Under the pieces are notes generated by a model. It was not told the origin of the DNA and did no database searches. It saw only the letters and a list, made by a program, of their open reading frames with translations. The position numbers and the translations under genes were made by a program. From NCBI GenBank assembly GCA_963815655.1, contig CAWFHK010000001.1, positions 3,930,664-3,994,663 on the forward strand: a stretch of DNA of 64,000 bases. Direction: 5' to 3'. Position 1 is the stretch's first letter. The number at the start of each line of letters is the position of its first letter. Origin of the DNA: an uncultured Acidobacteriota bacterium (GTDB lineage Bacteria > Acidobacteriota > Thermoanaerobaculia > UBA5066 > Gp7-AA6). Positions 5,572 to 53,440 of this stretch are shown here, in pieces.

Positions 5572-5826
5572 CTAGACCTCCATGTCGTCCACGGAGCACC
5601 AGCGCCAGTCCTCGCCCGGCTCGAAGGAGCGGATGATCGGGTGCTTCGTCTTCCGGAAGTGCTTCGTGGCGTGCCGGTTCGGGGAGTCGTCGCAGCAGCC
5701 GACGTGCCCGCACTCCAGGCAGAGGCGCAGGTGAACCCAGCTCGCTCCGATCTTCAGGCAGTCCTCGCAGCCGTCGGCGCTCGGCGTGACATCGCGAATC
5801 TGATTCAGATGGGTGCACGCCGTCAT
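5572..5826 (-). CDS. UBP-type zinc-finger domain protein
   Basis: 84 aa with the Cys/His spacing of zf-UBP (C..H...C..C...C.C..H..C). Confidence 0.65.
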   Translation of the reverse strand: MTACTHLNQIRDVTPSADGCEDCLKIGASWVHLRLCLECGHVGCCDDSPNRHATKHFRKTKHPIIRSFEPGEDWRWCSVDDMEV

Positions 5827-5930
5827 GACGACCTCCTGTTCTGCCAGATCCGGGCCAATCGGGCGGGCACGATCATCGCAGCGGATCTTCCCGGCCGCGG
5901 CGCCCAGTCCCGCGGCGAAAGGAGAGCCCG

Positions 5931-6080
5931 ATGATCCGCAAGCTCCCCTCCGGTGGGTACCGCCTCTACTCCCGCAAGAAAAACCCGAAGACGGAACGCC
6001 GGAGGAACCTCGGGACGTTCAAGAGCCTGGCGGCCGCGCGGAAGCACGAGCGCGCCGTCCAGTTCTTCAAGCGGAAGTGA
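5931..6080 (+). CDS. small basic protein (49 aa), possible nucleic-acid-binding
   Basis: ATG preceded by AAAGGAGAG at correct spacing. Encodes MIRKLPSGGYRLYSRKKNPKTERRRNLGTFKSLAAARKHERAVQFFKRK. It is absent from the ORF track because it is under 60 aa. Confidence 0.45.
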   Translation: MIRKLPSGGYRLYSRKKNPKTERRRNLGTFKSLAAARKHERAVQFFKRK

Positions 6081-6110
6081 TTTTCTCAATCGCAAATCAC
6101 CAATCACAGA

Positions 6111-6665
6111 TCACAAATCTTCTTTGATCGCCTCGGCGTCCACCGTGATGTCCACGTCGTCGCCGACGACGAATCCGCCGCGGTCGAGGACCCCGTTCCA
6201 GCTGACGCCGAAGTCGTGCCGGTTGATCCGGGTCGTGGCGGCGAACCCGGCGCGCGTCTTCGGTCCCTTGTCCACGTTCCCGTCCCACCATGGCGTCTGC
6301 CACTCCCCGAGGTATTCGACGTCGAGCGTGACCGGCCGGGTGACGCCGCGGATCGTCAGTTCGCCCTTGAGCTTCGCCACGTTCGCGCCGCACAGCTCGA
6401 CGTCGCCGCCCCGGAACGTGATCGTGGGATGGCGCTCGACATCCAGGAAGTCGGCGCTCTTCAGGTGGGCGTCGCGGTCCGGCTCGCCCGTCCAGATCTT
6501 CCGGGCGTCGATCGTGACGTCCACCGAGGTGGCCCGCGGGTCGCCCGGATCGAACTCCATCGTGCCGTGCACGTCCTTGAAGTGCCCCCGGACCCACGTC
6601 ACCATCATGTGCCGTGCCCGGAACTCCGCCGCCGTGTGACCGGGCTCGAAGAACCACCTCGCCAT
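6111..6665 (-). CDS. YceI-family periplasmic protein
   Basis: YceI-like fold motifs (HFKDVHGTM...GELTIRGVTRPV...). Start placed at the internal ATG (MARWFF...). An upstream alternative start at 6737 is possible. Confidence 0.7.
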   Translation of the reverse strand: MARWFFEPGHTAAEFRARHMMVTWVRGHFKDVHGTMEFDPGDPRATSVDVTIDARKIWTGEPDRDAHLKSADFLDVERHPTITFRGGDVELCGANVAKLKGELTIRGVTRPVTLDVEYLGEWQTPWWDGNVDKGPKTRAGFAATTRINRHDFGVSWNGVLDRGGFVVGDDVDITVDAEAIKEDL

Positions 6666-6868
6666 CGTGGGACCCCTTTCACTTGCGATCCGTTCTTGCT
6701 GGGAGTCGTGCGCCCTGGTCGAGGGACTCCACGCCATCGTTTACGCCGCGGATCCCGGATCGGGTTCAGCGGGTGGCTGTCCAACGGGGGCCGGCGGCCT
6801 TGACAGCGTCCTGGCCGCGGCGTACAGAGATGTCCTGCCCGAAGACAGTTGCTCGAAGGGAGGTCGTC

Positions 6869-8020
6869 ATGGAACCTCGGTCTTCCGGATTCGCCTGGCT
6901 CGTGCTGCTCGCGGGTGCCGCGGGCTGCGCCTCCGTTGGACCCCTCGACGTCAAACCGGAGTCCCTGGGCGCCTTCGAATGCGTGGACCGCGGGGCCGTC
7001 GCGTCGCCTCCGCCGCGCTCGGTCCTCGCCATCGGGCGCGCGCGGCGCGAGGAGAAGACGATCGTCCAGCGCGAGGGGAGGCCGCTCCTGACCCTCCGGC
7101 CGTGCGGGGACAGTAAGGTCCCGGTCTCGAAGACTCCGGCGAAGCCGACGGTGGCGAAGGGCAACCCTCTCCTCGGCGCGATCGACCGGCCGGTCTCCGA
7201 CTTCTTCAAAGAGGGGGGGACGGGCGAGGTGGTCCGGAAGAGCCTCCGCCCCTTCCGGAAGGTCTATTACATCCCGCCGGGACCGGACGAGGGCAAGCAC
7301 GAGGCGCCGGCGGATCCGCCCGCCTGCAACGGCATCTTCTACTACGGCGCCTGCTACTACTACGGGCCGGCGAGCTACGCGAGCGCGGCCGACGGTGGCG
7401 GCCTGACCGTGACCATCAAGCGCCCGGCCTTCCACGGCGAGGGGCACAGCCTGGACGAGATCTCCGTGCAGGGGGGAGAGGACAACGGCAACATCATCGA
7501 GCTCGGCTGGAATGTCTCGACCTCGCAATATCCGGACGCCGACCCGCACCTCTTCGTCTATCACTGGATCAACTGGGTCGGCACCTGCTACGACACCTGC
7601 GGCTGGCACCAGTACAGCCCGACCTATTTCCCGGGAATGAACCTGGCAGCGCTCGTCGGCCACGACGTCTACAACGGGTTCGTTCACTTCGGAGGAAACT
7701 GGTGGGCCTGGTTCGACAACCAGTGGCTCGGCTATTTCGCCGACTCGGAATGGAGCGGCAACTACACGAAGAGCGCGATGATCCAGTGGTTCGGCGAGGT
7801 CTCGACGAACAACGGGACCCCGCCGGAGGTCGACATGGGCAATGGGTTCTTCCCGACGAACCTCGCCGCGGCGAGGATGGCGACGCTCTGCGACGTGGAC
7901 GCGGCGGCGTGGGTCTGCTGGTACCGCGATCTCCAGTCGCTCGGTCCGAACTACCCGCCCTATTACGACATCCGCCGCATTGGCTTCGGCGAGACCCGCT
8001 ACGGCGGCCCCGGGCACTGA
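6869..8020 (+). CDS. lipoprotein with neprosin-like (DUF239) domain
   Basis: ATG with GAAGGGAGG RBS and a lipoprotein signal (LVLLAGAAGC). The C-terminal region matches the neprosin pattern IE.GW.V......P.LF.YW......GCY...C.GF.Q (IELGWNVSTSQYPDADPHLFVYHWINWVGTCYDTCGWHQY). Confidence 0.5.
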   Translation: MEPRSSGFAWLVLLAGAAGCASVGPLDVKPESLGAFECVDRGAVASPPPRSVLAIGRARREEKTIVQREGRPLLTLRPCGDSKVPVSKTPAKPTVAKGNPLLGAIDRPVSDFFKEGGTGEVVRKSLRPFRKVYYIPPGPDEGKHEAPADPPACNGIFYYGACYYYGPASYASAADGGGLTVTIKRPAFHGEGHSLDEISVQGGEDNGNIIELGWNVSTSQYPDADPHLFVYHWINWVGTCYDTCGWHQYSPTYFPGMNLAALVGHDVYNGFVHFGGNWWAWFDNQWLGYFADSEWSGNYTKSAMIQWFGEVSTNNGTPPEVDMGNGFFPTNLAAARMATLCDVDAAAWVCWYRDLQSLGPNYPPYYDIRRIGFGETRYGGPGH

Positions 8021-9002: not shown

Positions 9003-9400
9003 GTCCTGTCATCCCGAGCCTGGTTCCTGTCATCCCGAGCGAAGCGAGGGATCTGCTCCCGTAATTCTCAGGCTGCGGAGCAGATCCCTCGTCGCGGAGC
9101 CAGTCCCGATCGTCGATGTCGCCTAGTCCACCGTAACGAAAGCAGACTCCTCGCGGAGCCTGTCCCGAGCGGACACGGCTCATCGAAGCGACTGGAGTAG
9201 ATCCCTCGCTGCGCTCGGGATGACAGGAGGGGGCGAGGGGCTCGGGATGACAGGAGGGGGCGAGGGGCTCGGGATGACAGGAGGGGGCGAGGGGCTCGGG
9301 ATGACAGGAAGGGCGAGGGGCTCGGGATGACAGGAGGGGGCGAGGGGCTCGGAATGACATGCGAAGCGGAGGGGCTCCTCGGGATAACAGGCCATCGATT
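9003..9400. repeat. Hairpin-forming dispersed repeat locus 1, including a 27-bp tandem array (9214-9391, ~6.5 copies of CTCGGGATGACAGGAGGGGGCGAGGGG)
   Basis: Imperfect palindromes TGTCATCCCGAGCGAAGCGAGGGATCTGCTCC ... GGAGCAGATCCCTCG. The same motif family recurs at 46.3 kb and 53.2 kb. It generates the spurious ORFs with SCHPEPLAP / VIPSPSPPP repeats. Confidence 0.8.
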
Positions 9401-10241: not shown

Positions 10242-13200
10242 ATGACAATCAGGCGAGTGTTCCCGGTCATCGGCGCCGTCCTGCTGGCGCTGCAAGGCTC
10301 CTACGGGCTCGCGGCCGCGGCCGCGAAGCCTTCCGCGCCCGCGGCGCCCGCGAAGGAGGAGAGCGAGGGGCCGCTGCAGAATATGAAGTTCCGCAACCTC
10401 GGTCCGGCCGTCGGCGGCGGGCGCGTGACCTCGGTCGCGGGGATCGCCGGCGATCCCAACGTCCTCTACGTCGGCGCGGCCGGCGGAGGCGTGTGGAAGA
10501 GCGTGGACGGCGGGAACAGCTGGAAGGCCATCTTCGAGAAATACCCGTCGTCCATCGGGGCGATCGCGGTCGCGCCTTCGAACCCGAGCCTCCTCTGGGT
10601 CGGCACGGGGGAGTCGAACCCCCGCAACGACATGATGGACGGTTACGGCGTCTACTTCTCGGCGGACGCCGGGAACACCTGGCGCTTCATGGGCCTGGCC
10701 GACGTCGGCCAGATCTCCCGCGTCCTCATCGATCCGTACGACCCGAACACGGTCGTCGTCGCGGCTCTCGGCCACGTCTGGGCTCCCAACGCCGAGCGGG
10801 GCGTCTACCGCACGACCGACGGCGGGCAGAGCTGGAAGAAGGTTCTCTTCGTGGACGACAAGACCGGCGCCTGCGATCTCGTCATGGCGCCCGGCAACCC
10901 GAAGGTCCTCTTCGCCGGGATGTGGCAGGTCCGGCGGTTCCCGTGGGAGCTCGTGGACGGCGGCCCCGGCTCCGGGATCTACCGCTCGACCGACGGCGGC
11001 GCGACCTGGACGAAGCTGACGAAGGACATCCCGGAAGGCCCGCTCGGCCGCATCGCCCTCGCGGTCGCCCCGACCAACTCGAACCGGGTCTACGCCCTGA
11101 TCGAGACGAAGAAAGGGCTCCTCTGGGATTCGAAGGACGGCGGCGACCACTGGGAGAAGCTCTCCGACAGCAAGCTCTTCAACGTGCGCCCGTTCTATTT
11201 TTCGCTCGTGGCCGTGTCGCCGGCCGACGAGAACAAGGTCTATTTCGGCTCCTACAATCTCGTCGAGTCCGACGACGGCGGCAAGACCTTCCGCGTGATC
11301 GACCAGCGCATCCATCCCGACCACCACGCGCTCTGGATCGATCCGAAGGACCCGGACCGGATCCTGCAGGGCAACGACGGCTACGCCCTCCTCTCGACCG
11401 ACGGCGGAAAGTCGTGGCGCGGCTTCGACAACATCCCGATCGAGCAGTTCTACATGGTCTCGACCGACTCGAGCGTCCCCTACCGCGTCTGCGGCGGGCT
11501 CCAGGACAACAACGCCTGGTGCGGGGCCTCCAACTCCCTCTCCCGCGGCGGCATCGGGGCGGCGGACTGGTTCGTCACGGCGGGGGGAGACGGCGAATAC
11601 GTCGTGCCGGCCCCCTCCGATCCGACGATCGTCTATTCCGACTCGCAGAACGGCAACATCAGCCGCCTGGACCTGAAGACGCACCTCTCGAAGAACATCC
11701 GTCCCTACCTCGGCACGGTCTCGGAGATGAGCCCGGCGGAGCTGAAGTACCGGTTCAACTGGACGAGCCCCATCGCCGTGTCGGCCGCGAGCGCCGACGA
11801 GGTGTACATCGGCGGCAATGTGGTCTTCAAGTCCACCGACGGCGGCGCGCACTGGGCCGTCACCAGCCCGGATTTGACGCGCGACGACAAGTCCAAGCAG
11901 GTCGTCTCCGGCGGCCCCATCCACCACGACCTCTCGGGCGCCGAGACCTACGGCACGCTCCTGTCGCTCCAGATCGCGCCGACGGATTCCAACGTGATCT
12001 GGGCGGGCTCCGACGACGGGCAGGTGAGCGTGACGCGCGACGGGGGGAAGAACTGGACGAACGTGACGAAGAAGATCCCGAGCCTGCCGGAGTGGGGGCG
12101 CGTCTACCAGATCGACGTCTCTCCCTTCGACGCCGGGACCGCCACGGTCGTCTCGGACCGCCACATGCTGGACGACCGGCGTCCCTACGCCTACCGGACC
12201 GTCAACTACGGCGAGACGTGGACCTCCATCGCGAAGGGGCTGCCCGGCGACGCCCCGTGCTTCGTCGTGCGGGAAGACCCGAACAGGAAGGGGTTCCTCG
12301 TGGCCGGCACCGGCACCGGGCTCTTCTCCTCCCTGGACGCCGGCGCGACCTGGAAGCCGTTGAAGGCCGATTTTCCGAGCACGCCGGTCTGGGACCTGAA
12401 GTTCGTCAAGGCTTCCCACGACCTCGTCGTCGCGACGCACGGCCGCGGGCTCTTCGTGCTCGACAACATCACGCCGCTCGAGGAGTGGAGCGACGCGATC
12501 GCGGGGAAGGACTTCCATCTCTTCTCCTCGCCGCCGGCGGCGATGCTCCAGGCCTGGAACCGGGGCGGCTTCGCGGCGGGCGGGTTCTGGGCGCCAAACC
12601 CTCCCCACGGGATCACCGTGGATTACTTCGTCAAGACCGAGATCAAGCAGACCGAGGAGCAGAAGAAGGCCCATCGGGACGCGGTCCGGATCGTCGTCAC
12701 TGACGAGAAGGGGGGCGCGGTCGCGACGCAGTGGGGGCCGGCGAAGGAGGGGATCAACCGCCACGTCTGGAACCTGCGGTACGAAGGGCCCAAGAAGGTC
12801 GCCTCCGCCAAGGAGGCGCCCCCCAACGAGTTCTTCGAGCCCAACCGCGGTCCCGACGTGATGCCGGGCTCGTACAGGATCGCCGTGACGGTCAAGGGAG
12901 AGACGCAGACGCAAACGGTGACCGTCCTGCCCGATCCGCGCATACCGGCCGACATGGAAGCCTTCCGCGCGCAGACGCGGGCGGCGCTCGAAGTCCGCAA
13001 CGGCGTGAGCGCCTTGAACGAGATGATCAACCGGATCGACAGCCTGCAGAATCAGATCGCGGCGCTCGAGAAGAACCTCCGCGGCGGCTCCGACGAGGGG
13101 GAAGCGGGCCACGGCTCGCGCCGCTACGAAGGCGTGCTCAAGGCCGCGAAGGATCTCGGCAAGAAGTTGAAGGAGGTGCGGGACGGCGTCTACAACCCGG

Positions 13201-13481
13201 ACATCCAGCGCGACGTCGGCCAGGACTCGATCCATTACCACACGGACTTCCAGGGGCGGCTGCAGCGCCTGAACCAGGCGCTCTCCGGATACAACCGGGC
13301 CCCGGGCGACCTCTTCAAGGAGGAGATGACGGAGAGGCGAAGGAAGCTCGACGACTGCCTCGCGCGGTTCAACGACCTGGCGAAGACGGACGTGGCGGCC
13401 TTCAACAAGACCGCCGCCGAGCAGGGAGTCCCGACGCTCTTCGCCGGCGATCCCATCGAGGTTCAGCCGCCGGGCATCTGA
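10242..13481 (+). CDS. secreted BNR/Asp-box repeat protein, tandem beta-propeller (sortilin/Vps10- or GH74-like), 1079 aa
   Basis: Signal peptide present. About 11 Asp-box motifs (SxDxGxTW: SVDGGNSW, SADAGNTW, TTDGGQSW, STDGGATW, ...). C-terminal coiled-coil-like region. Confidence 0.75.
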   Translation: MTIRRVFPVIGAVLLALQGSYGLAAAAAKPSAPAAPAKEESEGPLQNMKFRNLGPAVGGGRVTSVAGIAGDPNVLYVGAAGGGVWKSVDGGNSWKAIFEKYPSSIGAIAVAPSNPSLLWVGTGESNPRNDMMDGYGVYFSADAGNTWRFMGLADVGQISRVLIDPYDPNTVVVAALGHVWAPNAERGVYRTTDGGQSWKKVLFVDDKTGACDLVMAPGNPKVLFAGMWQVRRFPWELVDGGPGSGIYRSTDGGATWTKLTKDIPEGPLGRIALAVAPTNSNRVYALIETKKGLLWDSKDGGDHWEKLSDSKLFNVRPFYFSLVAVSPADENKVYFGSYNLVESDDGGKTFRVIDQRIHPDHHALWIDPKDPDRILQGNDGYALLSTDGGKSWRGFDNIPIEQFYMVSTDSSVPYRVCGGLQDNNAWCGASNSLSRGGIGAADWFVTAGGDGEYVVPAPSDPTIVYSDSQNGNISRLDLKTHLSKNIRPYLGTVSEMSPAELKYRFNWTSPIAVSAASADEVYIGGNVVFKSTDGGAHWAVTSPDLTRDDKSKQVVSGGPIHHDLSGAETYGTLLSLQIAPTDSNVIWAGSDDGQVSVTRDGGKNWTNVTKKIPSLPEWGRVYQIDVSPFDAGTATVVSDRHMLDDRRPYAYRTVNYGETWTSIAKGLPGDAPCFVVREDPNRKGFLVAGTGTGLFSSLDAGATWKPLKADFPSTPVWDLKFVKASHDLVVATHGRGLFVLDNITPLEEWSDAIAGKDFHLFSSPPAAMLQAWNRGGFAAGGFWAPNPPHGITVDYFVKTEIKQTEEQKKAHRDAVRIVVTDEKGGAVATQWGPAKEGINRHVWNLRYEGPKKVASAKEAPPNEFFEPNRGPDVMPGSYRIAVTVKGETQTQTVTVLPDPRIPADMEAFRAQTRAALEVRNGVSALNEMINRIDSLQNQIAALEKNLRGGSDEGEAGHGSRRYEGVLKAAKDLGKKLKEVRDGVYNPDIQRDVGQDSIHYHTDFQGRLQRLNQALSGYNRAPGDLFKEEMTERRRKLDDCLARFNDLAKTDVAAFNKTAAEQGVPTLFAGDPIEVQPPGI

Positions 13482-13608
13482 AGGGCTCCGCGCTCCGGTG
13501 CGCGGTGCGCGGGGCCGGACGCGGCGGCCCCGGCTTGGATCAGTGGTGCCTCGGCGGGCCTGATCCTTGTGAAGCCTGCCGGGGACTCGCGCCATAATCC
13601 GGGGTCCG

Positions 13609-20751: not shown

Positions 20752-20884
20752 AACACGCGATGGCCGGCAACGTCAATTGGACATTGGTCCAGACCAGGAA
20801 CCAATCCTCGCATCTCCTTGCGCGGGCCCGGCTTCGCCTCTCTGTTACTGTGTTATAGATGCCACGAAAGAAATCGAAAACATC

Positions 20885-22069
20885 ATGAAGAGAAGAGGCG
20901 GTACTGGAGCGCGGATCGGTGTCTTCGCCGGTGCCCTGGCCTCAGCCGTCCTGGTCCTGGGCGCAACCCGGGGCCCCGCACCGGTGGACGTCTTGACGAT
21001 CGGGACGGTGAACGTCTCGTCCGGCACGGGCCAGGTCAAGGTCCCGTTCTCGATCCAGGACAACACCGGCACCCTGATCGGCCGCGACAAGGGCGCGGGC
21101 CTGCGGATCACGATCTTCGCGGCGCAGGTGGTCTACGGGCCCAACGCCTGCATCGACACGCCGTCTTCGGCGAGCGCGCGCATCGACCTGACCGGCGGCA
21201 TCCTCGCCAGCCAGAGCGCGGACCTTGACAGCCGCGTCAAGGTGGCCAACACGTCGCAGACCTGGTTCTACTCCTCGGCGGAGTCGAACGGGCTCATCCC
21301 CTTCACGGCGGCGGCCAGCCCCGGAGACCTGATGGGACAACTGGTCTTCGACCTGACCGGCTGCCCGGCCGGCCCGATCAGCCTGACCGTCACCGCGTCC
21401 GGCGCGGCGCAAGCCCTGCTCAGCTCCGACAGTGGCATGTCCGAGACTTCCGGCAGCGGTCTCACGGTCGTCAACGGCGCGATCAACATCACTCTCCCCA
21501 CGAGCACGCCGACGAACACTCCGACCAATACGCCGACGAATACGCCCACGAGCACGCCGACGAGGACGCCGACCGGCACGCCGACCAACACGCCGACACT
21601 CACGCAGACGCCGACGAACACACCGACGTTTACGCCGACGAACACGCCCACGATCACGCCGACGGTTACCTTCACGAACACGCCGACGCTCACGCCGACC
21701 GGCACGCAGTCGCCGACCTTCACGCCGACGCTCACGCCGACGAACACGCCGACGAACACGCCGACGGCCACGGTGACGAACACGCCGACGAACACGCCGA
21801 CCGGCACTCCGCCGCCGACGATCACGCCGACGTTCACGGCGACGAACACGCCCACGATCACGGCGACGTTCACGGTGACCAACACCCCGACGAACACGCC
21901 GGTCGCGACGGTGACGCCGACGACGACCCCGATTCCGCCCCCGACCACGACGCCGGTTCCGGGAGCGATTCCGGCAAACATCCCGACGCTGGACGGACGG
22001 TCGCTCGCTTTCCTCGCCGCGCTCCTCGCGGCTGCCGGCCTGCTGCTGTCGAAGCGCCTTTCCGGGTAG
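20885..22069 (+). CDS. IPTL-CTERM sorting-signal protein with extended Thr-Pro (TPTNTP) repeat linker
   Basis: Signal peptide ([27 protein letters not shown]). About 150 aa of TPTNTP-type repeats, encoded by an 18-bp DNA tandem at 21490-21960. The C-terminus is [30 protein letters not shown], i.e. an IPTL motif, a TM helix and a basic tail. Confidence 0.7.
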
Positions 22070-39165: not shown

Positions 39166-39383
39166 GGATCTCCTTGCCGTTGCCCGTCCTGGCGCGGGGC
39201 GCGTTCGACGTCCGTACCGTGTCCCGCTCTCGAGCCGATGTGCCTCAAGTTATCGCGCTCCCCTGAATATACCAGCTTGATAGCATTCGGGTTTCAGCCC
39301 GCGAGGAGTCTTGCAATTCCATGGCCGGAGAGGCGATAGTCCCCGGCGCGGGGGAATCGGCGGAGAGGAGGTCCCACAGGGAC

Positions 39384-40295
39384 ATGGAAGCCTTGCGGAT
39401 CGGATCGGACGAACACGCCCGTCTCTTCTGCGGGACGTTCCTGGAGACTCACCGCCCCTTCCGGGCCCGGGACATCGTCTGGCCCGAGCTGGACGAGGAG
39501 AACCTGGCCAGGTTGAAGGGCCTCCCCGTCTGGGACGAGGCGGCGAGGACGGAAGCCGCCACCGCAGTCAAGGTGCAGACCCTCGGGGAAGCCGAGACCG
39601 ACCCGCTCCTGAAGGAAGCCATCGCCCTGCAGGGCTACGAGGAGGGGCGCCACGCGGAGATCATCTCCCTCCTGACGAAGACCTACGGGATCGCCACCGC
39701 TCCCTTCGGAGAGCCGGAGAGGCCGAAGAACCCGACGTGGACCTTCCTGCGCACCGGCTACGGCGAGTGCCTCGATTCCTTCTTCGCCTTCGGCCTCTTC
39801 GACATCGGGCGCAGGAGCGAGTTCTTCCACGCGGACCTGATCGCGCTCTTCGACCAGATCATGCAGGAGGAGGCGAGGCACATCCTCTTCATCGTGAACT
39901 GGGCGGCGTACCTGCGCGCCCGCAGGCCCCTTCCGCTCAAGCCGGTGTTCGACGCGCGGCGGGCCTGGAACATCGCCGCGCAGGCCTTCGACCGCGTGAG
40001 CGGCGCGATGCGAATGGCCGGCGGCGGAAACGGCGGCGGCGGAGAAAACGGTGAAGAGAAGGCGAAGGGGACGCAGAGGGGGTTCACGCTGAAGAGCCAC
40101 TCGGCCTTCGGCGATTTCAAGCTGCGCTCGTTCCTGGAGCTCTGCCTGGCCGAGAACGTGCGGCGCCTCTCGCCCTACGACCCGCGCCTGTTGAGACCCA
40201 CGCTGGTACCGGGGACCGTGCGGCTCCTGGTGAAGCTGCTCCCCCGGGCGAAGCCGGGACGCGGGACTCGGGACGCGAGACTCGAACCGAAGTGA
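39384..40295 (+). CDS. ferritin-like di-iron carboxylate protein
   Basis: ATG with GGAGAGGAGG RBS. Two ExxH motifs (EEGRH, EEARH) in helical context. Gly-rich C-terminal tail. Confidence 0.55.
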   Translation: MEALRIGSDEHARLFCGTFLETHRPFRARDIVWPELDEENLARLKGLPVWDEAARTEAATAVKVQTLGEAETDPLLKEAIALQGYEEGRHAEIISLLTKTYGIATAPFGEPERPKNPTWTFLRTGYGECLDSFFAFGLFDIGRRSEFFHADLIALFDQIMQEEARHILFIVNWAAYLRARRPLPLKPVFDARRAWNIAAQAFDRVSGAMRMAGGGNGGGGENGEEKAKGTQRGFTLKSHSAFGDFKLRSFLELCLAENVRRLSPYDPRLLRPTLVPGTVRLLVKLLPRAKPGRGTRDARLEPK

Positions 40296-40368: not shown

Positions 40369-41541
40369 ATGGGAAGCGACCTCGTCAGCGCCTGCGTCTT
40401 CTGCGCGGGGATCCTGCTCGGCATGGAGCTGACGCCGCCGCCCGGATACCACGCGGAGGTCGGGTTCTCCTACGCGACGGCGGCGCGCCGGTACGTCATC
40501 GGCCCGGGAAGCGACGACACGTCCGACGTCACGCCCAAGTTCGCGCTCGTGGGGCTGGGCTGGTCGCGGGACGCCGCCGCCGGGCTCGGGGCCGGCACGC
40601 CCGCAGCGGAGTGGAGGGTGCGCGTCGCCCTCGCGCCTTCGCACGACGAGCAGGAGCAGACGCCGTTCGCGGCGACCAACACGACGGCCACCGGCACCGG
40701 CCGTTACGAGAACTTCGCGCTCCTCGCGCGCTACCCGCTCTCGCCGCGCGACTCGCTCGAGGCCGCGTGGAACCGCCGGACGCACAAGGCGACCGACGAG
40801 CTGGACATCGCCCACGAGCGCTTCTTCCTCTCGGAACAGCGCGTCCTCTCGGCCGAGCGCGTGGACGTCGCGGTCGGCTGGAGGCGCCGATGGAAAGGAA
40901 TCGAGGCAGCCCTGTCGGCGCGGTACGCGCGCCCGAGCGGGAGCCAGACGACGTCGGCCACGGACCGGATCTCGGAGGGCCCGATCTACGGAGGAGCGCT
41001 CGAGGCGCGCGCCCGCCGGGGACGGTGGACGCTCTCGGTCCTGGCCGAGCGGGCGAGCGGATCGATCGGCGTGCACGAGCAGAGCCAGCCGGATTTCGCG
41101 CACCGCGATTTCGACGGCACCGCCACCCTCGAGGCGTACCGGATCGGAGCGGGTTACGCGTCGGGCAGCACCGAAGCGTTCCTCCAGGCCACCTACGACC
41201 GCTCGCGCCTCCCCTTCGTGGCGTTCGCGGTCCTGGGCACCGAGGTCTCGGCCCTGGAGGCGGGCTACCACCCCGAGTCCCGCGCGAACCTGGTCTTCTG
41301 GGACCTCACCGTCCGGCACGCGTTCGTGCCGGGGTTCCGGGTGAAGGTCCTCCTGCGCTCTTCGAGCGGCGACGAGACGCTGACGCTGACCGACCCGGCC
41401 GGGGTCCTGCCGGCGCGCCGCCTCGACATCCGCCGCTCCGGAGTCTTCGGCGCCGGCCTCTCCCGCGTCCTCGGCGGCCCGGAGGTGAGCCTGGGCGTCG
41501 GCGCCGAGATCGCCCTCCCTTTCGCAGACCGGGGGCCGTAA
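40369..41541 (+). CDS. hypothetical secreted / outer-membrane-like protein
   Basis: Signal peptide (ACVFCAGILLGMELT). Alternating beta-strand-like pattern with aromatic C-terminal region (IALPFADRGP). Confidence 0.5.
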   Translation: MGSDLVSACVFCAGILLGMELTPPPGYHAEVGFSYATAARRYVIGPGSDDTSDVTPKFALVGLGWSRDAAAGLGAGTPAAEWRVRVALAPSHDEQEQTPFAATNTTATGTGRYENFALLARYPLSPRDSLEAAWNRRTHKATDELDIAHERFFLSEQRVLSAERVDVAVGWRRRWKGIEAALSARYARPSGSQTTSATDRISEGPIYGGALEARARRGRWTLSVLAERASGSIGVHEQSQPDFAHRDFDGTATLEAYRIGAGYASGSTEAFLQATYDRSRLPFVAFAVLGTEVSALEAGYHPESRANLVFWDLTVRHAFVPGFRVKVLLRSSSGDETLTLTDPAGVLPARRLDIRRSGVFGAGLSRVLGGPEVSLGVGAEIALPFADRGP

Positions 41542-43250: not shown

Positions 43251-43298
43251 GTCTTCCCGGAACGCGGCAGGGCGAGAAACGGGTTACCGGAGGCTAGA

Positions 43299-43604
43299 TC
43301 AGCTCCACTTCTTGCCGAGCGCTTCGAGCCCCGCGCTCTTCAGATCCTCCGGGCTCATGACCGGGTGAAACTCGACGTCGGCGTCGAACTGGAGGAACCA
43401 GGGCTCGGCGATCGCCGGGATCCCCGAGACGTCCTTCAGGTTGACGATCAGGATCGCGGTTCGCCGGCCGTGCATCTCGGTGAAGTAAGCCGACTCGGGC
43501 TTCGTATCTTCCAGGATGCGGTTCATCGTCTGGCCGACCGTCCCCTTGCGGACGGCCTCGTTGAACTTTTCGTGAGGGATCGAGACTTTGAGGAGAATTC
43601 GCAT
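43299..43604 (-). CDS. small conserved hypothetical protein (101 aa)
   Basis: Compact ORF with protein-like composition immediately downstream of the squalene-synthase-like gene. Confidence 0.45.
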   Translation of the reverse strand: MRILLKVSIPHEKFNEAVRKGTVGQTMNRILEDTKPESAYFTEMHGRRTAILIVNLKDVSGIPAIAEPWFLQFDADVEFHPVMSPEDLKSAGLEALGKKWS

Positions 43605-43704: not shown

Positions 43705-44610
43705 TCAGGGCCGGATCGCGACCGCCGGATCGCCGCGGTCGAGCGCCCGGTCGAGACGCCGGCGGATGGCGAAGAGCTCGAGGCGCGAGACCTTGGAGCC
43801 GGGGCCGCGCTCCTCGACCTTCCGGAGCGTCGCCCAGGCGAGCTCGACGGGGAGGGCGCAGAACTCGACGAGACCGCGCGGGGCGGCGGCGCGCTGCAGG
43901 GCGAGCGTGTACTCGCCGGCGACATGGAGGTCCCGGCGGGCCTTGGCGAAGACGTCCGCGCGGGGGACGCTCCCGGGCAGGAAGCCGCGCCCCTCCGATG
44001 CGTCCACCGAGGCGTCCTTGAGGATGTTGACGAGCTGCAGGGCCTCGCCGAAGGTCGCCGCGCGCGCGCGCAGGTAGGGCGCGACCGGAGCCAGGATGTC
44101 CCGCTTCAGGAGGAACAGATCCGAGAGCATCTCGCCCACGATCCCGGCGACGGCGTAGCAATAGGCGCGCAGCTCTTCGAGGTCTTTCAACGCGAGGACC
44201 CCGGCGTCGGACCGGGCCACGAAGCCGGCCATTCCCGCGGCCGAGCGGGAGACGTGGCCGCGGACGGAGGCGATCGCTTCAGGGTCGAGCGCGAAGAAAG
44301 CCTCGAGAACGAACGGAGTCTCGGCGATCAGCTCGCGGTAGCCGGCGTGGGGCGAGACGCCGGCCCCGGTCCATTTCCCGGCGAGCCGGCGCGCCTCCCC
44401 GAAAGAGAAGTCGCGCAGCAGGTCCTGGAACTCCGCGAGGGCCTCGATCCGCCGCTCGGGCGGCCAGTGGGCGGCGTCCTCGAAGGTGTCGGCGATGCGG
44501 AAGAGAAGGTAGGCGATCATGACCTGCCGCCTCGTCGGCTCGGGGAGCACCGGGATCGAGATCGCGAAGGTGCGGCTCGTCTTCTCCAGCAGCTCTTCGA
44601 GCGTCGTCAT
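43705..44610 (-). CDS. squalene/phytoene synthase family protein (HpnC/HpnD/Sqs-like)
   Basis: Trans-isoprenyl diphosphate synthase head-to-head fold. Asp-rich motif region (YCYAVAGIVGEM) and N-terminal LEKTSRTFAISI. Confidence 0.8.
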   Translation of the reverse strand: MTTLEELLEKTSRTFAISIPVLPEPTRRQVMIAYLLFRIADTFEDAAHWPPERRIEALAEFQDLLRDFSFGEARRLAGKWTGAGVSPHAGYRELIAETPFVLEAFFALDPEAIASVRGHVSRSAAGMAGFVARSDAGVLALKDLEELRAYCYAVAGIVGEMLSDLFLLKRDILAPVAPYLRARAATFGEALQLVNILKDASVDASEGRGFLPGSVPRADVFAKARRDLHVAGEYTLALQRAAAPRGLVEFCALPVELAWATLRKVEERGPGSKVSRLELFAIRRRLDRALDRGDPAVAIRP

Positions 44611-45350
44611 TCGAATCCGTCCTCGAGGAGGCGCCCGAGAAAGAGCGCGAGGCCCTCGCTGCAGTCGAGCACCCGGCGGCGCATCCGGAGGAGGGCGGGG
44701 ATCGTGCGGGGGCGCCGGAGGGCCCTCGCGGCCACCGCGCCCCGGCGGATCCCGCCGTCCTCCCCGACGCTCGCGGCGATCGACTCGGGCAGGGACTCCT
44801 CGGCCCGGTCGCTGATGGAGCGGACGACGAGGTAGGGGATCGAGGCCCGCGCCGCGACCCGCGCCCAGGCCGAGGATTCCATGTCGGCGGCCGCCGGGCC
44901 GCCGGAATCGGCCAGCGCCGCGAGAACCTCCTTCTCCCGCGCCGTGACGGCCGGCCGCTCGACCGTCAGGAGCGTGCCGGCGCGCGCGCCCGCCGCGAGC
45001 GCGCGGGCGAGCAGGCCCTCATCGGGAGCCGCGGCTTCCCTGGAGGAGTCGCGGACATGGCGGGAGGCGAGCAGGTCTCCGATTTCGAGCTCCGCCGAAA
45101 GCGCGGCGGCCACGCCCGCCCCGAGGAGCGCCGCGGGGCGGAGGGCCCCGCAGAGCCGGGCCGACTCGCGCTCGGCATTCCTCGGGCCGGTTCCGGTCGC
45201 CGCGATGGCGACCCGCGCCGCTCCGATCCGCGCGGTGACGTACCCCGCGCCGTCGAAGCGAGCGTCCTCCGCGTGGCGGACGATGGCGTCGAGCTCCTCC
45301 TTCATGGCCGTCACGATGACGATCCTGCGGCCGTTCCTATCCGCGGACAT
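44607..45350 (-). CDS. hpnG: hopanoid-associated phosphorylase/nucleosidase (PNP_UDP_1 fold, HpnG-like)
   Basis: MTA/SAH-nucleosidase-like fold (IVIVTAMKEEL...). Sits between the squalene-synthase-like gene and hpnA. Start at the internal ATG 45350; an alternative start is at 45374. Confidence 0.65.
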   Translation of the reverse strand: MSADRNGRRIVIVTAMKEELDAIVRHAEDARFDGAGYVTARIGAARVAIAATGTGPRNAERESARLCGALRPAALLGAGVAAALSAELEIGDLLASRHVRDSSREAAAPDEGLLARALAAGARAGTLLTVERPAVTAREKEVLAALADSGGPAAADMESSAWARVAARASIPYLVVRSISDRAEESLPESIAASVGEDGGIRRGAVAARALRRPRTIPALLRMRRRVLDCSEGLALFLGRLLEDGFE

Positions 45351-46323
45351 AGCCGTTTTCGCGGAACCAGGCAACCGCGCGGGCGAGGGCCTCCTCGACC
45401 GGCGTCTGCGGTAGCCCCAGCTCCCGCACCGCCTTGCCCGGGTCGAAATACATCCGGTGGCGGGACATCCGAGCGCCCTCGAGCGGCACCCGGGGCGGCT
45501 GCCCGGTCACTCTCGAGGCGAGCGTGCTCACCGCGGCGGCGGCAAGCGGGACCCAGTGCGGCAGGCGGACTCTCGGCGAGGGGATGCCCGTCAGCTTCGA
45601 GAGCGCGTCGAAGATCTCCTTGAGAGTCATGTCGCGGTTTCCGAGGATGTATTTCTCTCCGATCCGTCCCTTCTCCGCGGCGAGGACGTGCCCCTCCGCG
45701 ACGTCCCGCACGTCCACGAGATTCAATCCCGTCTCAACGTAGGCTGGCATCCGGCGGTTCAGGAAGTCCACGATCATCTGCCCGGTGGGCGTCGGCTTGA
45801 TGTCCCTCTCGCCGACCGGCGTCGAGGGATTGACGATGACGACCGGAAGGCCCCTGGCCGCGAACTCCTTCGCGACGCCCTCGGCCTCGTGCTTGCTCTT
45901 CTTGTAATGGCCGATCAGGGTGCGGGGCTCGACCGGAGTCTCTTCGTTTCCGGGCCGGCCGTCGCGCGTCAGGCCCAGGGCGCCGACGCTGCTCGTGTAG
46001 ACGACCTTCTCGGCTCCGATTTCCGCTGCGGCCGCGAGGACGTTGCGGGTCCCCTCGACGTTGGCGGCATAGATCTCGCGGGGGCGCCGCGCCGAGAGCC
46101 GGTAATCCGCGGCGCAGTGATAGACTCGCTGCGCGCCGGCCATCGCCCGCACCAGCGACTCCGGGTCCGTCACGTCGCCCGCCACCACCTCGACCGGCAG
46201 CTCCTCGAGGTTGCTCAGCCGGCTGGAGGATCGGACGAGGCAGCGAACGGTCCGTCCGCGCTTGACGAGCGCCCGCACGACGTGCGCGCCCACGAACCCG
46301 GTGCCGCCGGTGACGAAGTCCAC
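45337..46323 (-). CDS. hpnA: hopanoid-associated NAD-dependent sugar epimerase/dehydratase (HpnA-like)
   Basis: N-terminal GGTGFVG Rossmann motif and YxxxK (YKKSK). 328 aa. Position in the hpn cluster. Confidence 0.75.
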   Translation of the reverse strand: MDFVTGGTGFVGAHVVRALVKRGRTVRCLVRSSSRLSNLEELPVEVVAGDVTDPESLVRAMAGAQRVYHCAADYRLSARRPREIYAANVEGTRNVLAAAAEIGAEKVVYTSSVGALGLTRDGRPGNEETPVEPRTLIGHYKKSKHEAEGVAKEFAARGLPVVIVNPSTPVGERDIKPTPTGQMIVDFLNRRMPAYVETGLNLVDVRDVAEGHVLAAEKGRIGEKYILGNRDMTLKEIFDALSKLTGIPSPRVRLPHWVPLAAAAVSTLASRVTGQPPRVPLEGARMSRHRMYFDPGKAVRELGLPQTPVEEALARAVAWFRENGYVRG

Positions 46324-46329
46324 CTATCC

Positions 46330-46535
46330 CCCCTGTCATTCCGAGGAGCCCCTCCGCTCGTTCTGTCACTCCGAGCGAAGCGAGGAGTCTGCCCTGGTCG
46401 TTTTTGACCGGCTCGGATCAAGATCGGGACAGGCTCCGCGACGAGGAATCTACCTCCGTTGGGCCGCGCCGGAGCAGATCCCTCGCTGCGCTCGGGATGA
46501 CAAAGCGGGGCGGGAGGCTCGGAATGACAGGAACG
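46330..46535. repeat. Hairpin-forming dispersed repeat locus 2
   Basis: TGTCATTCCGAGGAGCC...TGTCACTCCGAGCGAAGCGAGGAGTCTGCC...GGAGCAGATCCCTCGCTGCGCTCGGGATGACA. Same family as 9.0-9.4 kb and 53.2 kb. Lies between hpnA and hpnH. Confidence 0.8.
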
Positions 46536-46544
46536 GTCGGAGAC

Positions 46545-47546
46545 CTACCCGGTGAGGTTCCAGGCGAGGAGGCGAAACATGTCGCCGGGGTGCTTCGGGA
46601 GCTCCTTGACGACGGAAGCCTCGAACCCGGAGTGCATCGCGCAGTTGGCGCAGAGGGGGTCCTCGCGCGACTCCCAGTAGTCCCAGTCGGTGCCGCCCCA
46701 GAACTCGTCCCACGAGTGCGTGTACGTTTTTCCGATCAGGTAGCAAGGGCCCTTCCAGCCGTTGGGCGTGAAGGTGACGGTGCTCCAGGGGGAGCACTTG
46801 TACTCGCGCAGCCCCGCCGCGAACTCGAGGAACATCGGCGTCGAGGTCAACTTGTACTTCTTGGAGATCTCCAGCACCCGCCGGAACTTCTTCTGGATCT
46901 CCGATTTCGTCAGGAACATGTCGCGCTCGACCGACTCGTAGTGATAGCCGGGCGAGACGAGGAGCCCCTCGACCCCCAGGCCCGTCAGGAGCTCGCAGAC
47001 CTGCTCGACCTCCGAGACGTCGGTTTCCTTGAAGATCGTCATGTTGGCCATGACGTGATGGCGCAAGCGAACGCCCTCGCGGATCATCTCGACGGCCGTG
47101 TCGAAGACGCCGTCGCGGGCGCAGACCTTGTCGTGGGTTTCCCGCATGCCGTCCAGGTGGACGTTGATCATCAGGCGGCGGTCGGGAGGGATGACGCCGT
47201 ACACCTTCTGGTCGAGGAGAAGCCCGTTGGTGCAGAGGTAGATGTGGCGCTTCCTGCGGATGATCTCGGAGACGAGCGCGGGCAGTTCCGGGTAGATCGT
47301 CGGCTCGCCGCCGCAGATCGAGACGATCGGAGCCTTCGAGGTCTCGACCGCCTCGAGGCACTTCTCGATCGGGAGGCGGTCCTGGAGCTTCCCCGTGTGC
47401 CGCTCGATCGCGCACCCCAGGCAGGCGAGGTTGCAGGTGTAGAGGGGCTCGAGCATCAGGACGAACGGGTAGCGCTTGTTGCCCGCGAGGGCGTTGACGA
47501 TCTGGTGCCGGACCGTGCCGGTCGTGATGTGCAGCGGGAACCTCAT
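46545..47546 (-). CDS. hpnH: adenosylhopane-forming radical SAM enzyme
   Basis: Radical SAM CxxxCxxC (CNLACLGC). Strong HpnH-like conserved blocks. The ATG overlaps the shc stop (ATGA). Confidence 0.85.
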   Translation of the reverse strand: MRFPLHITTGTVRHQIVNALAGNKRYPFVLMLEPLYTCNLACLGCAIERHTGKLQDRLPIEKCLEAVETSKAPIVSICGGEPTIYPELPALVSEIIRRKRHIYLCTNGLLLDQKVYGVIPPDRRLMINVHLDGMRETHDKVCARDGVFDTAVEMIREGVRLRHHVMANMTIFKETDVSEVEQVCELLTGLGVEGLLVSPGYHYESVERDMFLTKSEIQKKFRRVLEISKKYKLTSTPMFLEFAAGLREYKCSPWSTVTFTPNGWKGPCYLIGKTYTHSWDEFWGGTDWDYWESREDPLCANCAMHSGFEASVVKELPKHPGDMFRLLAWNLTG

Positions 47547-49548
47547 CGGCTCGATTCTCCTTCGCTCGTCCTCGTGTCGGCCGTGGCTTCCAGGGCCTTC
47601 CGATCGGCGGCCTCGAGTCCGGGGCCGGAAGACCCGGCCTCCCGTCCATAGACCGCGAGGGCCCAGAGCGGGAAGTACGTCGCGTAGAGATGGTAGCGCA
47701 GGTAGAAGACCCGCGGGAACCCCGTCCCGGTCCAGTATTCGTCCTTCCAGGAGCCGTCGTACTGCTGGTTTCCCAGCAGGTAGTCGAGGCCGCGGCGAAC
47801 GCTGTTGGAAGTCCAGTCGCCCAACGCGAAGAGTCCAAGCAACGCCCATGCCGTCTGGGAGGGGGTGCTCGGCCCGGTGCCTTTGCGCCCCGGCTCGTCG
47901 TAGGAGCGCGGGAGCTCTCCCCATCCGCCGTCCTCGTTCTGGTGGCGGCGCAGCCAGCTCCCCCCCGCTGATACCGTTCCTGGGAGAGGTCCTCGCCGGC
48001 GCTCGCGAGTCCCCTCAGGGCGAGCCACGTCCCGTAGATGAAGTTGCACCCCCACCGCCCATACCAGGTTCCTTCGGTGTCCTGCCTGCGGTTCAGATAC
48101 GCGACGGCGCGCCGGACCGCCTTGACGCCGCGCCCGACGCCGATCCGGTCGAGCGCCTCGAGCGTGCGCCCGGTGATGTCCTCGCAGCTCGGGTCGATCA
48201 TGGCGTTGTGGTCCGCGAACGGGATGAACGTCAGCACCTCGTTGTCGCAGTCGCGGTCGAAGGCGGGCCAGCCGCCGTCGCCGTTCTGCATCGCGAGCTG
48301 CCAGGTCACGCCGCGCTCGATCGCCCCCTGCCGGCGCCGCTCGTCGCGCTCGTCGGGAAAACGCACGGCGGCCAGAGACGTCAGCACTTCCGCCGTGTCG
48401 TCGGTATCGGGATAGAACTCGTTCTCGTACTCGAAGTACCAGCCGCCGGGGGGCGTCTTCGGGATCCGCCGCTGCCAGTCCCCGGGCACGCGGACTTCGC
48501 GGTCGAGCAGCCAGCCCGCCGCGCGCAGCAGGCACGGATCGTCTTCCGGGACGCCCGCCTCCCGCAGCGCGACCACCGCGAGCGCCGTGTCCCAGACCGG
48601 GGGGAAGCAGGGCTGCAGGCGAATCGTCTCTTCCTCCTCGATCTCCAGCTTCTGCAGCTCTTCGACCTGGCTCTTCACCGTCGGGTGATCGGCCGCGTAG
48701 CCGCGGCAGCGCAGCGCGAGGATCGTGTTGACGATCGGAGGGAAGATCGCTCCGAGCCCGTCGCTCCTCTCGAGACGCTCGAGGACCCACGCCTCGGCCC
48801 GTGCCAGCGCCCGCCTGCGCAGGGGAGTCCAGCGCCGGGACTCCAGCTCGTGGAGGAACCGGTCCACCCCGCCGAAGAAGGCTCCCCAGAACCGCGCGCG
48901 CAGGCTCCGCGCCCGCCGCTTCGGCTGCGCCGCGCCCTCCGGCGTCCGGAGCTCGGTGAGAGACGCGCTCTCCGGGACGGGACAGCTCGGGCGATATGCC
49001 GAGATGATCGAGAGGGGCACCACGATCGCGCGGGACCAGGAGGACATCCGATAGATCGAGAACGGCATCCAGTCCGGCAGCAGGACGAGCTCCGCCGGGA
49101 CGGTCGGGCATCTCTCCCAATCGTATTGTCCGAAGATCGAGAGATAAATCTTCGTGAAGGAGTTGCACGCGTCCAGCCCGCCATGCTCGCGGATGACGCG
49201 CCGCGCCTTCGCCATGTGCGGGGCTTCGGGGTCGTCGCCGACGAGCTTCAAGGCGAAGTAGGCCTTCGTCGAGGCGCTCACCTCCGCCGGGCCTCCCGGG
49301 TAGACCGCCCAGCCCCCCGACGGGAGCTGCTGGCGCCGCAGGTACTCGGCCGCCTTCCGGATCCGGTCCTCCCCGGTGCGCCCGAGGAAATGCATCGTCA
49401 GCATGTACTCGGACTCGAGGATCGTGTCCCCCTCGAGCTCGCCGCACCAGTGGCCGTCCTCGCGCTGGATGGAGAGGAGGTACCGGCGGGCCGCCGCCGC
49501 GGCGTCGTCCACCCCGAGTGCGGGTTCCACGTCTTTCTCGACCGACAT
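47543..49548 (-). CDS. shc: squalene-hopene cyclase, reading frame interrupted at a G7/C7 homopolymer (47960-47966)
   Basis: The N-terminal ~530 aa (frame A) carry the QW motifs and DxDDTA (DTDDTAEV). The C-terminal ~140 aa (GGWGE...TGTGFPRVFYLRYHLY...) lie in a second frame. One extra G in the run would restore ...SQERYQRGGSWLRRHQNEDGGWGE.... Confidence 0.8.
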
Positions 49549-53204: not shown

Positions 53205-53440
53205 GCCCTTCTCATTCTGAGGAGCGATTCCATTCCCCTGTCATTCTGAGGAGCCTCCTCGGCTTCGCATGTTCATTCCGAGCCCCTCGCCCTTCGCTGT
53301 CATCCCGAGCGGAGCGAGGGATCTGCTCTGCCCGATTCGAGTCGCCGCATCCGAGCTCGGGACAGGCTCCGCGAGGAATCTGCCCTCGTTACCGTGAACC
53401 CGCGACATCAATCATCGGGACAAGCTCCGACGAAGAACCG
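53205..53440. repeat. Hairpin-forming dispersed repeat locus 3
   Basis: TGTCATTCTGAGGAGCC...TGTCATCCCGAGCGGAGCGAGGGATCTGCTC...GGGACAGGCTCCGCGAGGAATCTGCC. Same family as loci 1 and 2. Downstream of metH. Confidence 0.8.

Follow-up and report, generated by a model that had tools for sequence, protein, structure and literature searches.

A single-base frame break in the squalene-hopene cyclase gene of an uncultured acidobacterium: probable consensus deletion in a long-read assembly

Introduction

Has an uncultured soil acidobacterium with an otherwise intact hopanoid gene cluster lost its squalene-hopene cyclase (SHC), or has the gene been broken only in the assembly of its genome? The question is raised by a stretch of DNA of 64 kb, analysed here in full and called the window, in which the minus-strand gene shc changes reading frame at a run of seven identical bases (positions 47960-47966) that reads as C7 on the plus strand and as G7 in the gene. 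A preliminary description of the sequence had noticed this change of frame and offered three readings of it: an error of sequencing or assembly, a phase-variable gene, and an inactivated gene. Here, we weigh these readings against related genomes, the substitution pattern on both sides of the break and the accuracy of assemblies of the same kind.

The shc gene and its neighbourhood

The gene starts at the ATG at 49548 (MSVEKD..., matching its relatives) and ends with a stop codon at 47543-47545, all on the minus strand. Its N-terminal part, codons 1 to about 528 (47967-49548), contains the catalytic motif DTDDTA (DXDD), and its C-terminal part (47543-47959), 139-140 codons plus the stop in a frame displaced by one base, carries the active-site segment GTGFP..FYL.Y..Y. 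Around the run the minus strand reads ...TAT CAG CGG GGG GGA GCT GGC..., and past it the SHC sequence resumes as SWLRRHQNEDGGWGE..., in the displaced frame, which is read from the AGC at 47959 up to the stop codon. As given, shc thus does not read as one uninterrupted frame. A Viterbi frame scan based on GC3, which uses composition only and no prior information, places the switch at 47960/47961. The two halves lie in tblastn frames -2 and -1, and residues 529-668 of the repaired protein match the C-terminal part at 100%. With one base added, the gene encodes an SHC of 668 aa that scores 697.3 bits with the hopene_cyclase model TIGR01507 (cut-off 431.1) and aligns end to end with the enzyme of Alicyclobacillus acidocaldarius (PDB 1GSZ, residues 18-625 of 631, E = 6e-157), the C-terminal part corresponding to residues ~519 to 625. 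That the halves are in different frames and that the switch lies at G7, as first described, is confirmed by the tblastn frames, the Viterbi scan and the TIGR01507 match after repair.

In a 19-sequence SHC alignment that includes the repaired window protein, and whose listed invariant columns are kept in that protein by construction, the DTDDTA motif sits at the invariant columns D381, D383 and D384. The window gene shares with the A. acidocaldarius enzyme (PDB 1GSZ/2SQC) and with the TIGR01507 family both the DXDD motif and the conserved C-terminus. Unlike the gene of the solved enzyme, it changes reading frame at the codon equivalent to residue ~519, and the product of its N-terminal frame as given would be without the last ~140 residues and would gain an out-of-frame extension of ~500 aa. 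The unshifted frame stays open for a further 1511 nt beyond the break and meets its first stop at 46450-46452 (minus strand), out of frame and past all of hpnH. No second shc is present in the 64-kb window. The N-terminus of the window SHC is 8-10 residues shorter than that of its relatives, in a variable region ahead of the first conserved helix, and a 30-nt in-frame difference from a conspecific contig (L083, described below) lies at 49521, at the 5' end of the gene.

The shc gene is the first of a minus-strand run. It is followed by hpnH (46545-47546; adenosyl-hopene transferase, 353 bits with TIGR03470, cut-off 225), which starts at an ATG that shares bases with the stop codon of shc (ATGA), by hpnA (45337-46323; hopanoid-associated sugar epimerase, 478 bits with TIGR03466 against a cut-off of 368), by a gene for an hpnG-like phosphorylase (44607-45374), which is intact in the window and scores 109 bits with TIGR03468, below the cut-off, and by a squalene synthase-like gene of the squalene/phytoene synthase family (43705-44610), whose 301 aa equal the length found in the relative L001. 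A B12 radical-SAM gene, dxs, ispH and an hpnL-like gene lie further along, all of them intact, and metH lies upstream of shc and is divergently transcribed. The preliminary description was right to call the rest of the hopanoid cluster intact, as the neighbouring hopanoid genes are unbroken in the window.

Several other features of this region were observed. Between dxs and the B12 radical-SAM gene lie two conserved genes on the plus strand (39321-40295 and 40369-41541), whose products have no NCBIfam match and whose counterparts in L083 (303 aa and 386 aa) have no Pfam match; both may belong to the hopanoid region as uncharacterised genes. L083 carries a PMT_2-family glycosyltransferase gene of ~1.9 kb (11638-13556 of that contig) between its B12 radical-SAM and squalene synthase-like genes, which is absent from the window (43291-43301), a strain-level difference in gene content inside the hopanoid region. 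An intergenic repeat family occurs at 9177-9377, 46332-46547 and 53273-53399: at 9.2 kb it forms a tandem array of seven copies of a 27-nt unit (GGGCGAGGGGCTCGGGATGACAGGAGG), and related copies are found in the 220 nt that separate hpnH from hpnA and, in inverted orientation, downstream of metH. The hpnH-hpnA spacer measures just 15 nt in L001; the repeat element is also present in L083. Scans of the 64 kb for tRNAs and for Rfam families (gathering threshold) gave no match, and hence none for a cobalamin riboswitch close to metH or to the B12 radical-SAM gene.

Selection on both sides of the break

If shc had been inactive for long, its sequence should have begun to drift, and a conspecific contig allows this to be judged. 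L083 (ENA contig_47257, 750 kb) shares 95-97% nucleotide identity with the window over 31.6-51.1 kb. Differences between the two were polarised with three outgroups, and the neutral expectation is roughly three non-synonymous changes per synonymous one. In the window lineage since its split from L083, the part of shc before the break has gathered 25 synonymous against 3 non-synonymous changes, and the 140 codons beyond it 6 against 1; in the comparison with three relatives at a greater distance, the counts are 34 synonymous and 15 non-synonymous. These counts lie under the neutral ratio, which implies that the 140 codons beyond the break have remained under coding constraint for essentially the whole history of the lineage. 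Neither further lesions (a second stop or indel) nor relaxed selection was found in shc on either side of the break, and in comparison with the relative L002 the missing base is the sole gap in 2.6 kb. An old pseudogene is rejected on the substitution pattern, and judged from these comparisons either the lesion arose an evolutionary instant ago or it is not real.

The inactivated shc that had been proposed would consequently have to be a very recent one, since the part after the break is still under purifying selection. In that form the proposal says that a real one-nucleotide loss-of-function deletion arose in shc a very short time ago, is carried by the dominant genotype of the population and has turned hopanoid synthesis off. 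The lack of a second lesion and the unrelaxed selection downstream weigh against it, and together with the evidence discussed below they lead us to consider it unlikely.

The missing base

According to the preliminary description, one more G restores the junction. One added base does restore a full-length SHC, but the relatives argue against G as the base that was lost. The three nearest 90%-identity clusters contribute 32 close SHCs, of which 31 read QRAGSW and one reads QRSGSW, and Ala stands at the junction position in all 18 homologues of the alignment; an eighth G would give QRGGSW. At the DNA level, L001 and L004 have CAG CGC GCG GGG AGC, L006 has CGG GCG GGA, L003 has CGT GCG GGA, L002 and L008 have CGC GCG GGC, and L005 and the conspecific L083 have CGC GCC GGA (CGCGCCGGA in L083). 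The common pattern is CGN GCN GGN AGC, that is, GGGCGGGG-type sequence, and none of the relatives examined, L083 included, has a G tract at the site. Deletion of a C from CGG-GCG-GGG-AGC yields exactly the CGGGGGGGAGC of the window. The missing base was thus probably the C of the Ala codon GCG and not a G: loss of C fits better because the close relatives read QRAGSW or QRSGSW and not QRGGSW. Since one C deletion accounts for the window sequence and no relative carries the homopolymer, the G7 run is most simply a by-product of the lesion, and we regard it as probably created by the lesion, not as an earlier slippery tract. Gly does occur at the junction in 55 of 118 SHCs of more distant origin, about half of them, and an ancestor with G8, in which Ala changed to Gly before a G was lost, is conceivable, at the price of one extra step compared with the C deletion.

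These comparisons bear directly on the idea that shc is a phase-variable contingency locus, in which slipped-strand mispairing in a poly-G tract would toggle the gene and with it hopanoid production. Phase-variable contingency genes with poly-G or poly-C tracts are known in Neisseria, Haemophilus and Campylobacter, and the window gene resembles them in having a G run inside a coding region where a change of one unit toggles the frame. The run lies exactly at the switch, eight G would restore the frame, and the Gly that would then be encoded is tolerated in those more distant SHCs. Unlike the tracts of these pathogens, however, the run is 7 nt only, is not conserved in orthologues and most plausibly arose through the deletion, and the gene that holds it encodes a core enzyme of biosynthesis in a soil bacterium; to our knowledge, contingency loci have been found mainly in host-adapted pathogens and not in soil Acidobacteriota. 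Moreover, this 70% GC window is rich in runs of 6-8 G. With the tract missing from the relatives, down to the CGC GCC GGA of the conspecific, a phase-variable shc is not supported, and we hold it to be extremely improbable.

A further reading is recoding, in which full-length SHC would arise through slippage, either of the ribosome by -1 on G_GGG_GGA or of the RNA polymerase on G7. A heptamer of the form X_XXY_YYZ is formally present in the zero frame (CG G_GGG_GGA GCT), as in programmed -1 frameshifting of the dnaX or IS3/IS911 type, and a -1 slip on it would give QRGGSWLRR.... Unlike those systems, the site in the window is without a stimulatory structure and without conservation, its G-only motif is inefficient and the zero-frame product would be useless. 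The 90 nt downstream fold no better than shuffled sequences (minimum free energy -36.8 kcal/mol against a shuffle mean of -38.0, z = 0.35), so no stimulatory RNA structure was found there, and all orthologues examined encode SHC in one frame across the site. We know of transcriptional slippage on long runs of A or T, not on G7. In Escherichia coli, G_GG.G_GG.U without a stimulator gives 0.018% frameshifting, which is background, and no G-only heptamer is among the motifs above 0.1% (PMC4066793). Recoding of shc is in our view barely credible, and even taken together with phase variation it remains very improbable.

Accuracy of the window and of related assemblies

Whether a single missing base can be blamed on the assembly depends on how accurate the assembly is elsewhere. 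In the GC3 Viterbi scan, shc contains the sole true frame break among about 50 coding segments in 64 kb. Coding segments that end without an in-frame stop are the N-terminal part of shc and a stretch of a Pro-Thr (PT) repeat gene; all others are properly terminated. The window contains 35 homopolymer runs of at least 6 nt, all but one of them G or C, and the other G/C runs of 7-8 nt, at 2367, 7213, 14798 and 34406, all lie inside unbroken coding segments. With these four in frame, the assembly does not miscount such runs systematically. The product of the PT-repeat gene (20777-22069, plus strand) is secreted and contains an extended stretch of Pro-Thr repeats (TPTNTPTN..., period 12 nt, array at 21471-21950). 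A candidate second frameshift at 20947-21354 was rejected, as it belongs to this gene, whose composition fools the GC3 model into a call on the opposite strand.

The origin of the sequence can be narrowed down from its neighbours in the databases. Five window proteins were located on one NCBI/ENA contig of 4,462,701 bp, which has no annotation names, as is the case for the Microflora Danica (MFD) MAGs, and among the matches listed for the repaired SHC those closest to it, at identities of up to 90%, come from MFD MAGs whose contigs carry names in the style of Flye. A contig of 4.46 Mb from an uncultured soil lineage probably implies long reads, presumably from the Nanopore platform. The MFD long-read MAG catalogue was built from Nanopore reads only, with Flye assembly and one round of Medaka polishing (PMC12313526).

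Assemblies of these siblings contain the same class of lesion in neighbouring genes. In L083, shc itself is broken by a 1-nt insertion at window position 49368, hpnG is split in two by a 1-nt insertion at 45064, the squalene synthase-like gene is broken by a 1-nt insertion at 44532, and dxs contains an out-of-frame stretch of ~85 aa in which GC3 falls from 0.94 to 0.5. The two sequences are reciprocal: the window is intact at each of the L083 lesions, and L083 is intact at the site of the window lesion. The metH gene lies in three frames in L004 (6264-10000) and in two in L008 (6258-10110). These sibling lesions are best explained as consensus errors, because the genes concerned are conserved and otherwise 85-97% identical to intact orthologues; as a consequence, the annotations of these MAG records will under-report intact pathways. 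In the coordinates of L083 itself, the lesions in dxs, the squalene synthase-like gene, hpnG and shc lie at 5575-7527, 14785, 15318 and 19829, respectively, and the gene calls for metH of L001 and L004 are split into three proteins. According to Sereika et al. (2022, PMC9262707), indels in Nanopore consensus sequences shift the frame of called genes, and polishing is required for bins with coverage under about 40x; homopolymers of less than 11 nt are, in the same work, reported as resolved in R10.4 consensus.

Consensus deletion or recent loss

Taken together, we read the break in shc, with a probability of about 0.7, as a single-base consensus deletion in a long-read metagenome assembly. The C of the Ala codon would have been dropped, turning CGG-GCG-GGG-AGC into CGGGGGGGAGC, as a residual one-base deletion in the consensus of a long-read (probably Nanopore-only) chromosome within a G-rich 8-mer of low complexity, and the organism itself would have an intact shc at the head of an intact hopanoid operon. 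We infer that the window contig comes from the same type of data as its siblings and that the extra base would be present in the reads. Of the error originally proposed, the general form is now the favoured alternative; a simple miscount of G8 as G7 is improbable, as the relatives have GGGCGGGG-type sequence.

Several observations support the consensus deletion: one base suffices to give a full SHC, L083 is intact at the site, the gene is without decay, the break is isolated, and the same class of lesion is frequent in sibling assemblies. The lesion is also like the indels described for Nanopore-only assemblies (PMC9262707, PMC12313526) in being a single base in a low-complexity, G-rich context of an otherwise conserved gene, and like those of the sibling MFD MAGs in its class. 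Other observations weigh against it. The remaining G/C runs of 7-8 nt were called in frame, short homopolymers are reportedly resolved in R10.4 consensus, and one frameshift per 64 kb also fits the natural rate of pseudogenes. Unlike Nanopore homopolymer errors, the window lesion is probably not a pure run-length error, and it is a deletion, whereas the indels seen in the sibling MAGs are insertions.

Part of this counter-evidence speaks for the recent inactivation introduced above: the lesion is present in the sequence as given, the other G7-G8 runs are called in frame, and a single frameshift in 64 kb suggests a fairly accurate consensus. The truncated product would also be inactive, as the C-terminal active-site segment is lost. 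On the other side, the conspecific and all relatives are unbroken at the site, every neighbouring hopanoid gene is intact, and sibling lesions of this class are mostly artefacts in such data. A deleterious allele would furthermore have to be in the majority in an environmental population in order to reach the consensus. Contigs of JGI metagenomes were scanned for copies of the junction from independent conspecific genomes, once with a degenerate pattern of variable gap and once with a 48-nt flank, and neither scan gave a match; as the pattern also missed L002, which should match, this may reflect the content of the collection and says little about whether conspecific sequence exists.

It is nevertheless worth stating what a real lesion would entail. 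The C-terminal part aligns with the segment of A. acidocaldarius SHC that contains F601, F605, Y609 and Y612, which we take, from SHC mutagenesis, to be active-site aromatic residues. SHC would be abolished, because these aromatic residues would be lost. Ribosomes would run out of frame across hpnH, and translation of hpnH, whose ATG overlaps the shc stop, would probably be disturbed too. It is conceivable that, if the deletion is real, slippage by -1 on the newly created G_GGG_GGA provides a trace of rescue. That the deletion is both real and dominant, so that a free-living soil acidobacterium of the class Thermoanaerobaculia very recently lost hopanoid synthesis with a polar effect on the translationally coupled hpnH, seems to us rather improbable.

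Implications

Taken at face value, the frameshift leads to a genome scored as being without squalene-hopene cyclase; if the break is a consensus deletion, as we favour, a hopanoid producer would be wrongly dropped from surveys of lipid biomarkers in the Acidobacteriota. In high-GC long-read MAGs of this group, single-base indels break shc, metH, dxs and hpnG, at rates of up to one per few kilobases. At such rates, there is a need for frameshift-aware gene calling or for checks at the level of the reads before a pathway is called present or absent. The main value of the locus thus lies in its warning about inferring the loss of a pathway from such assemblies; were the lesion real, it would be a modest case of very recent pathway loss.
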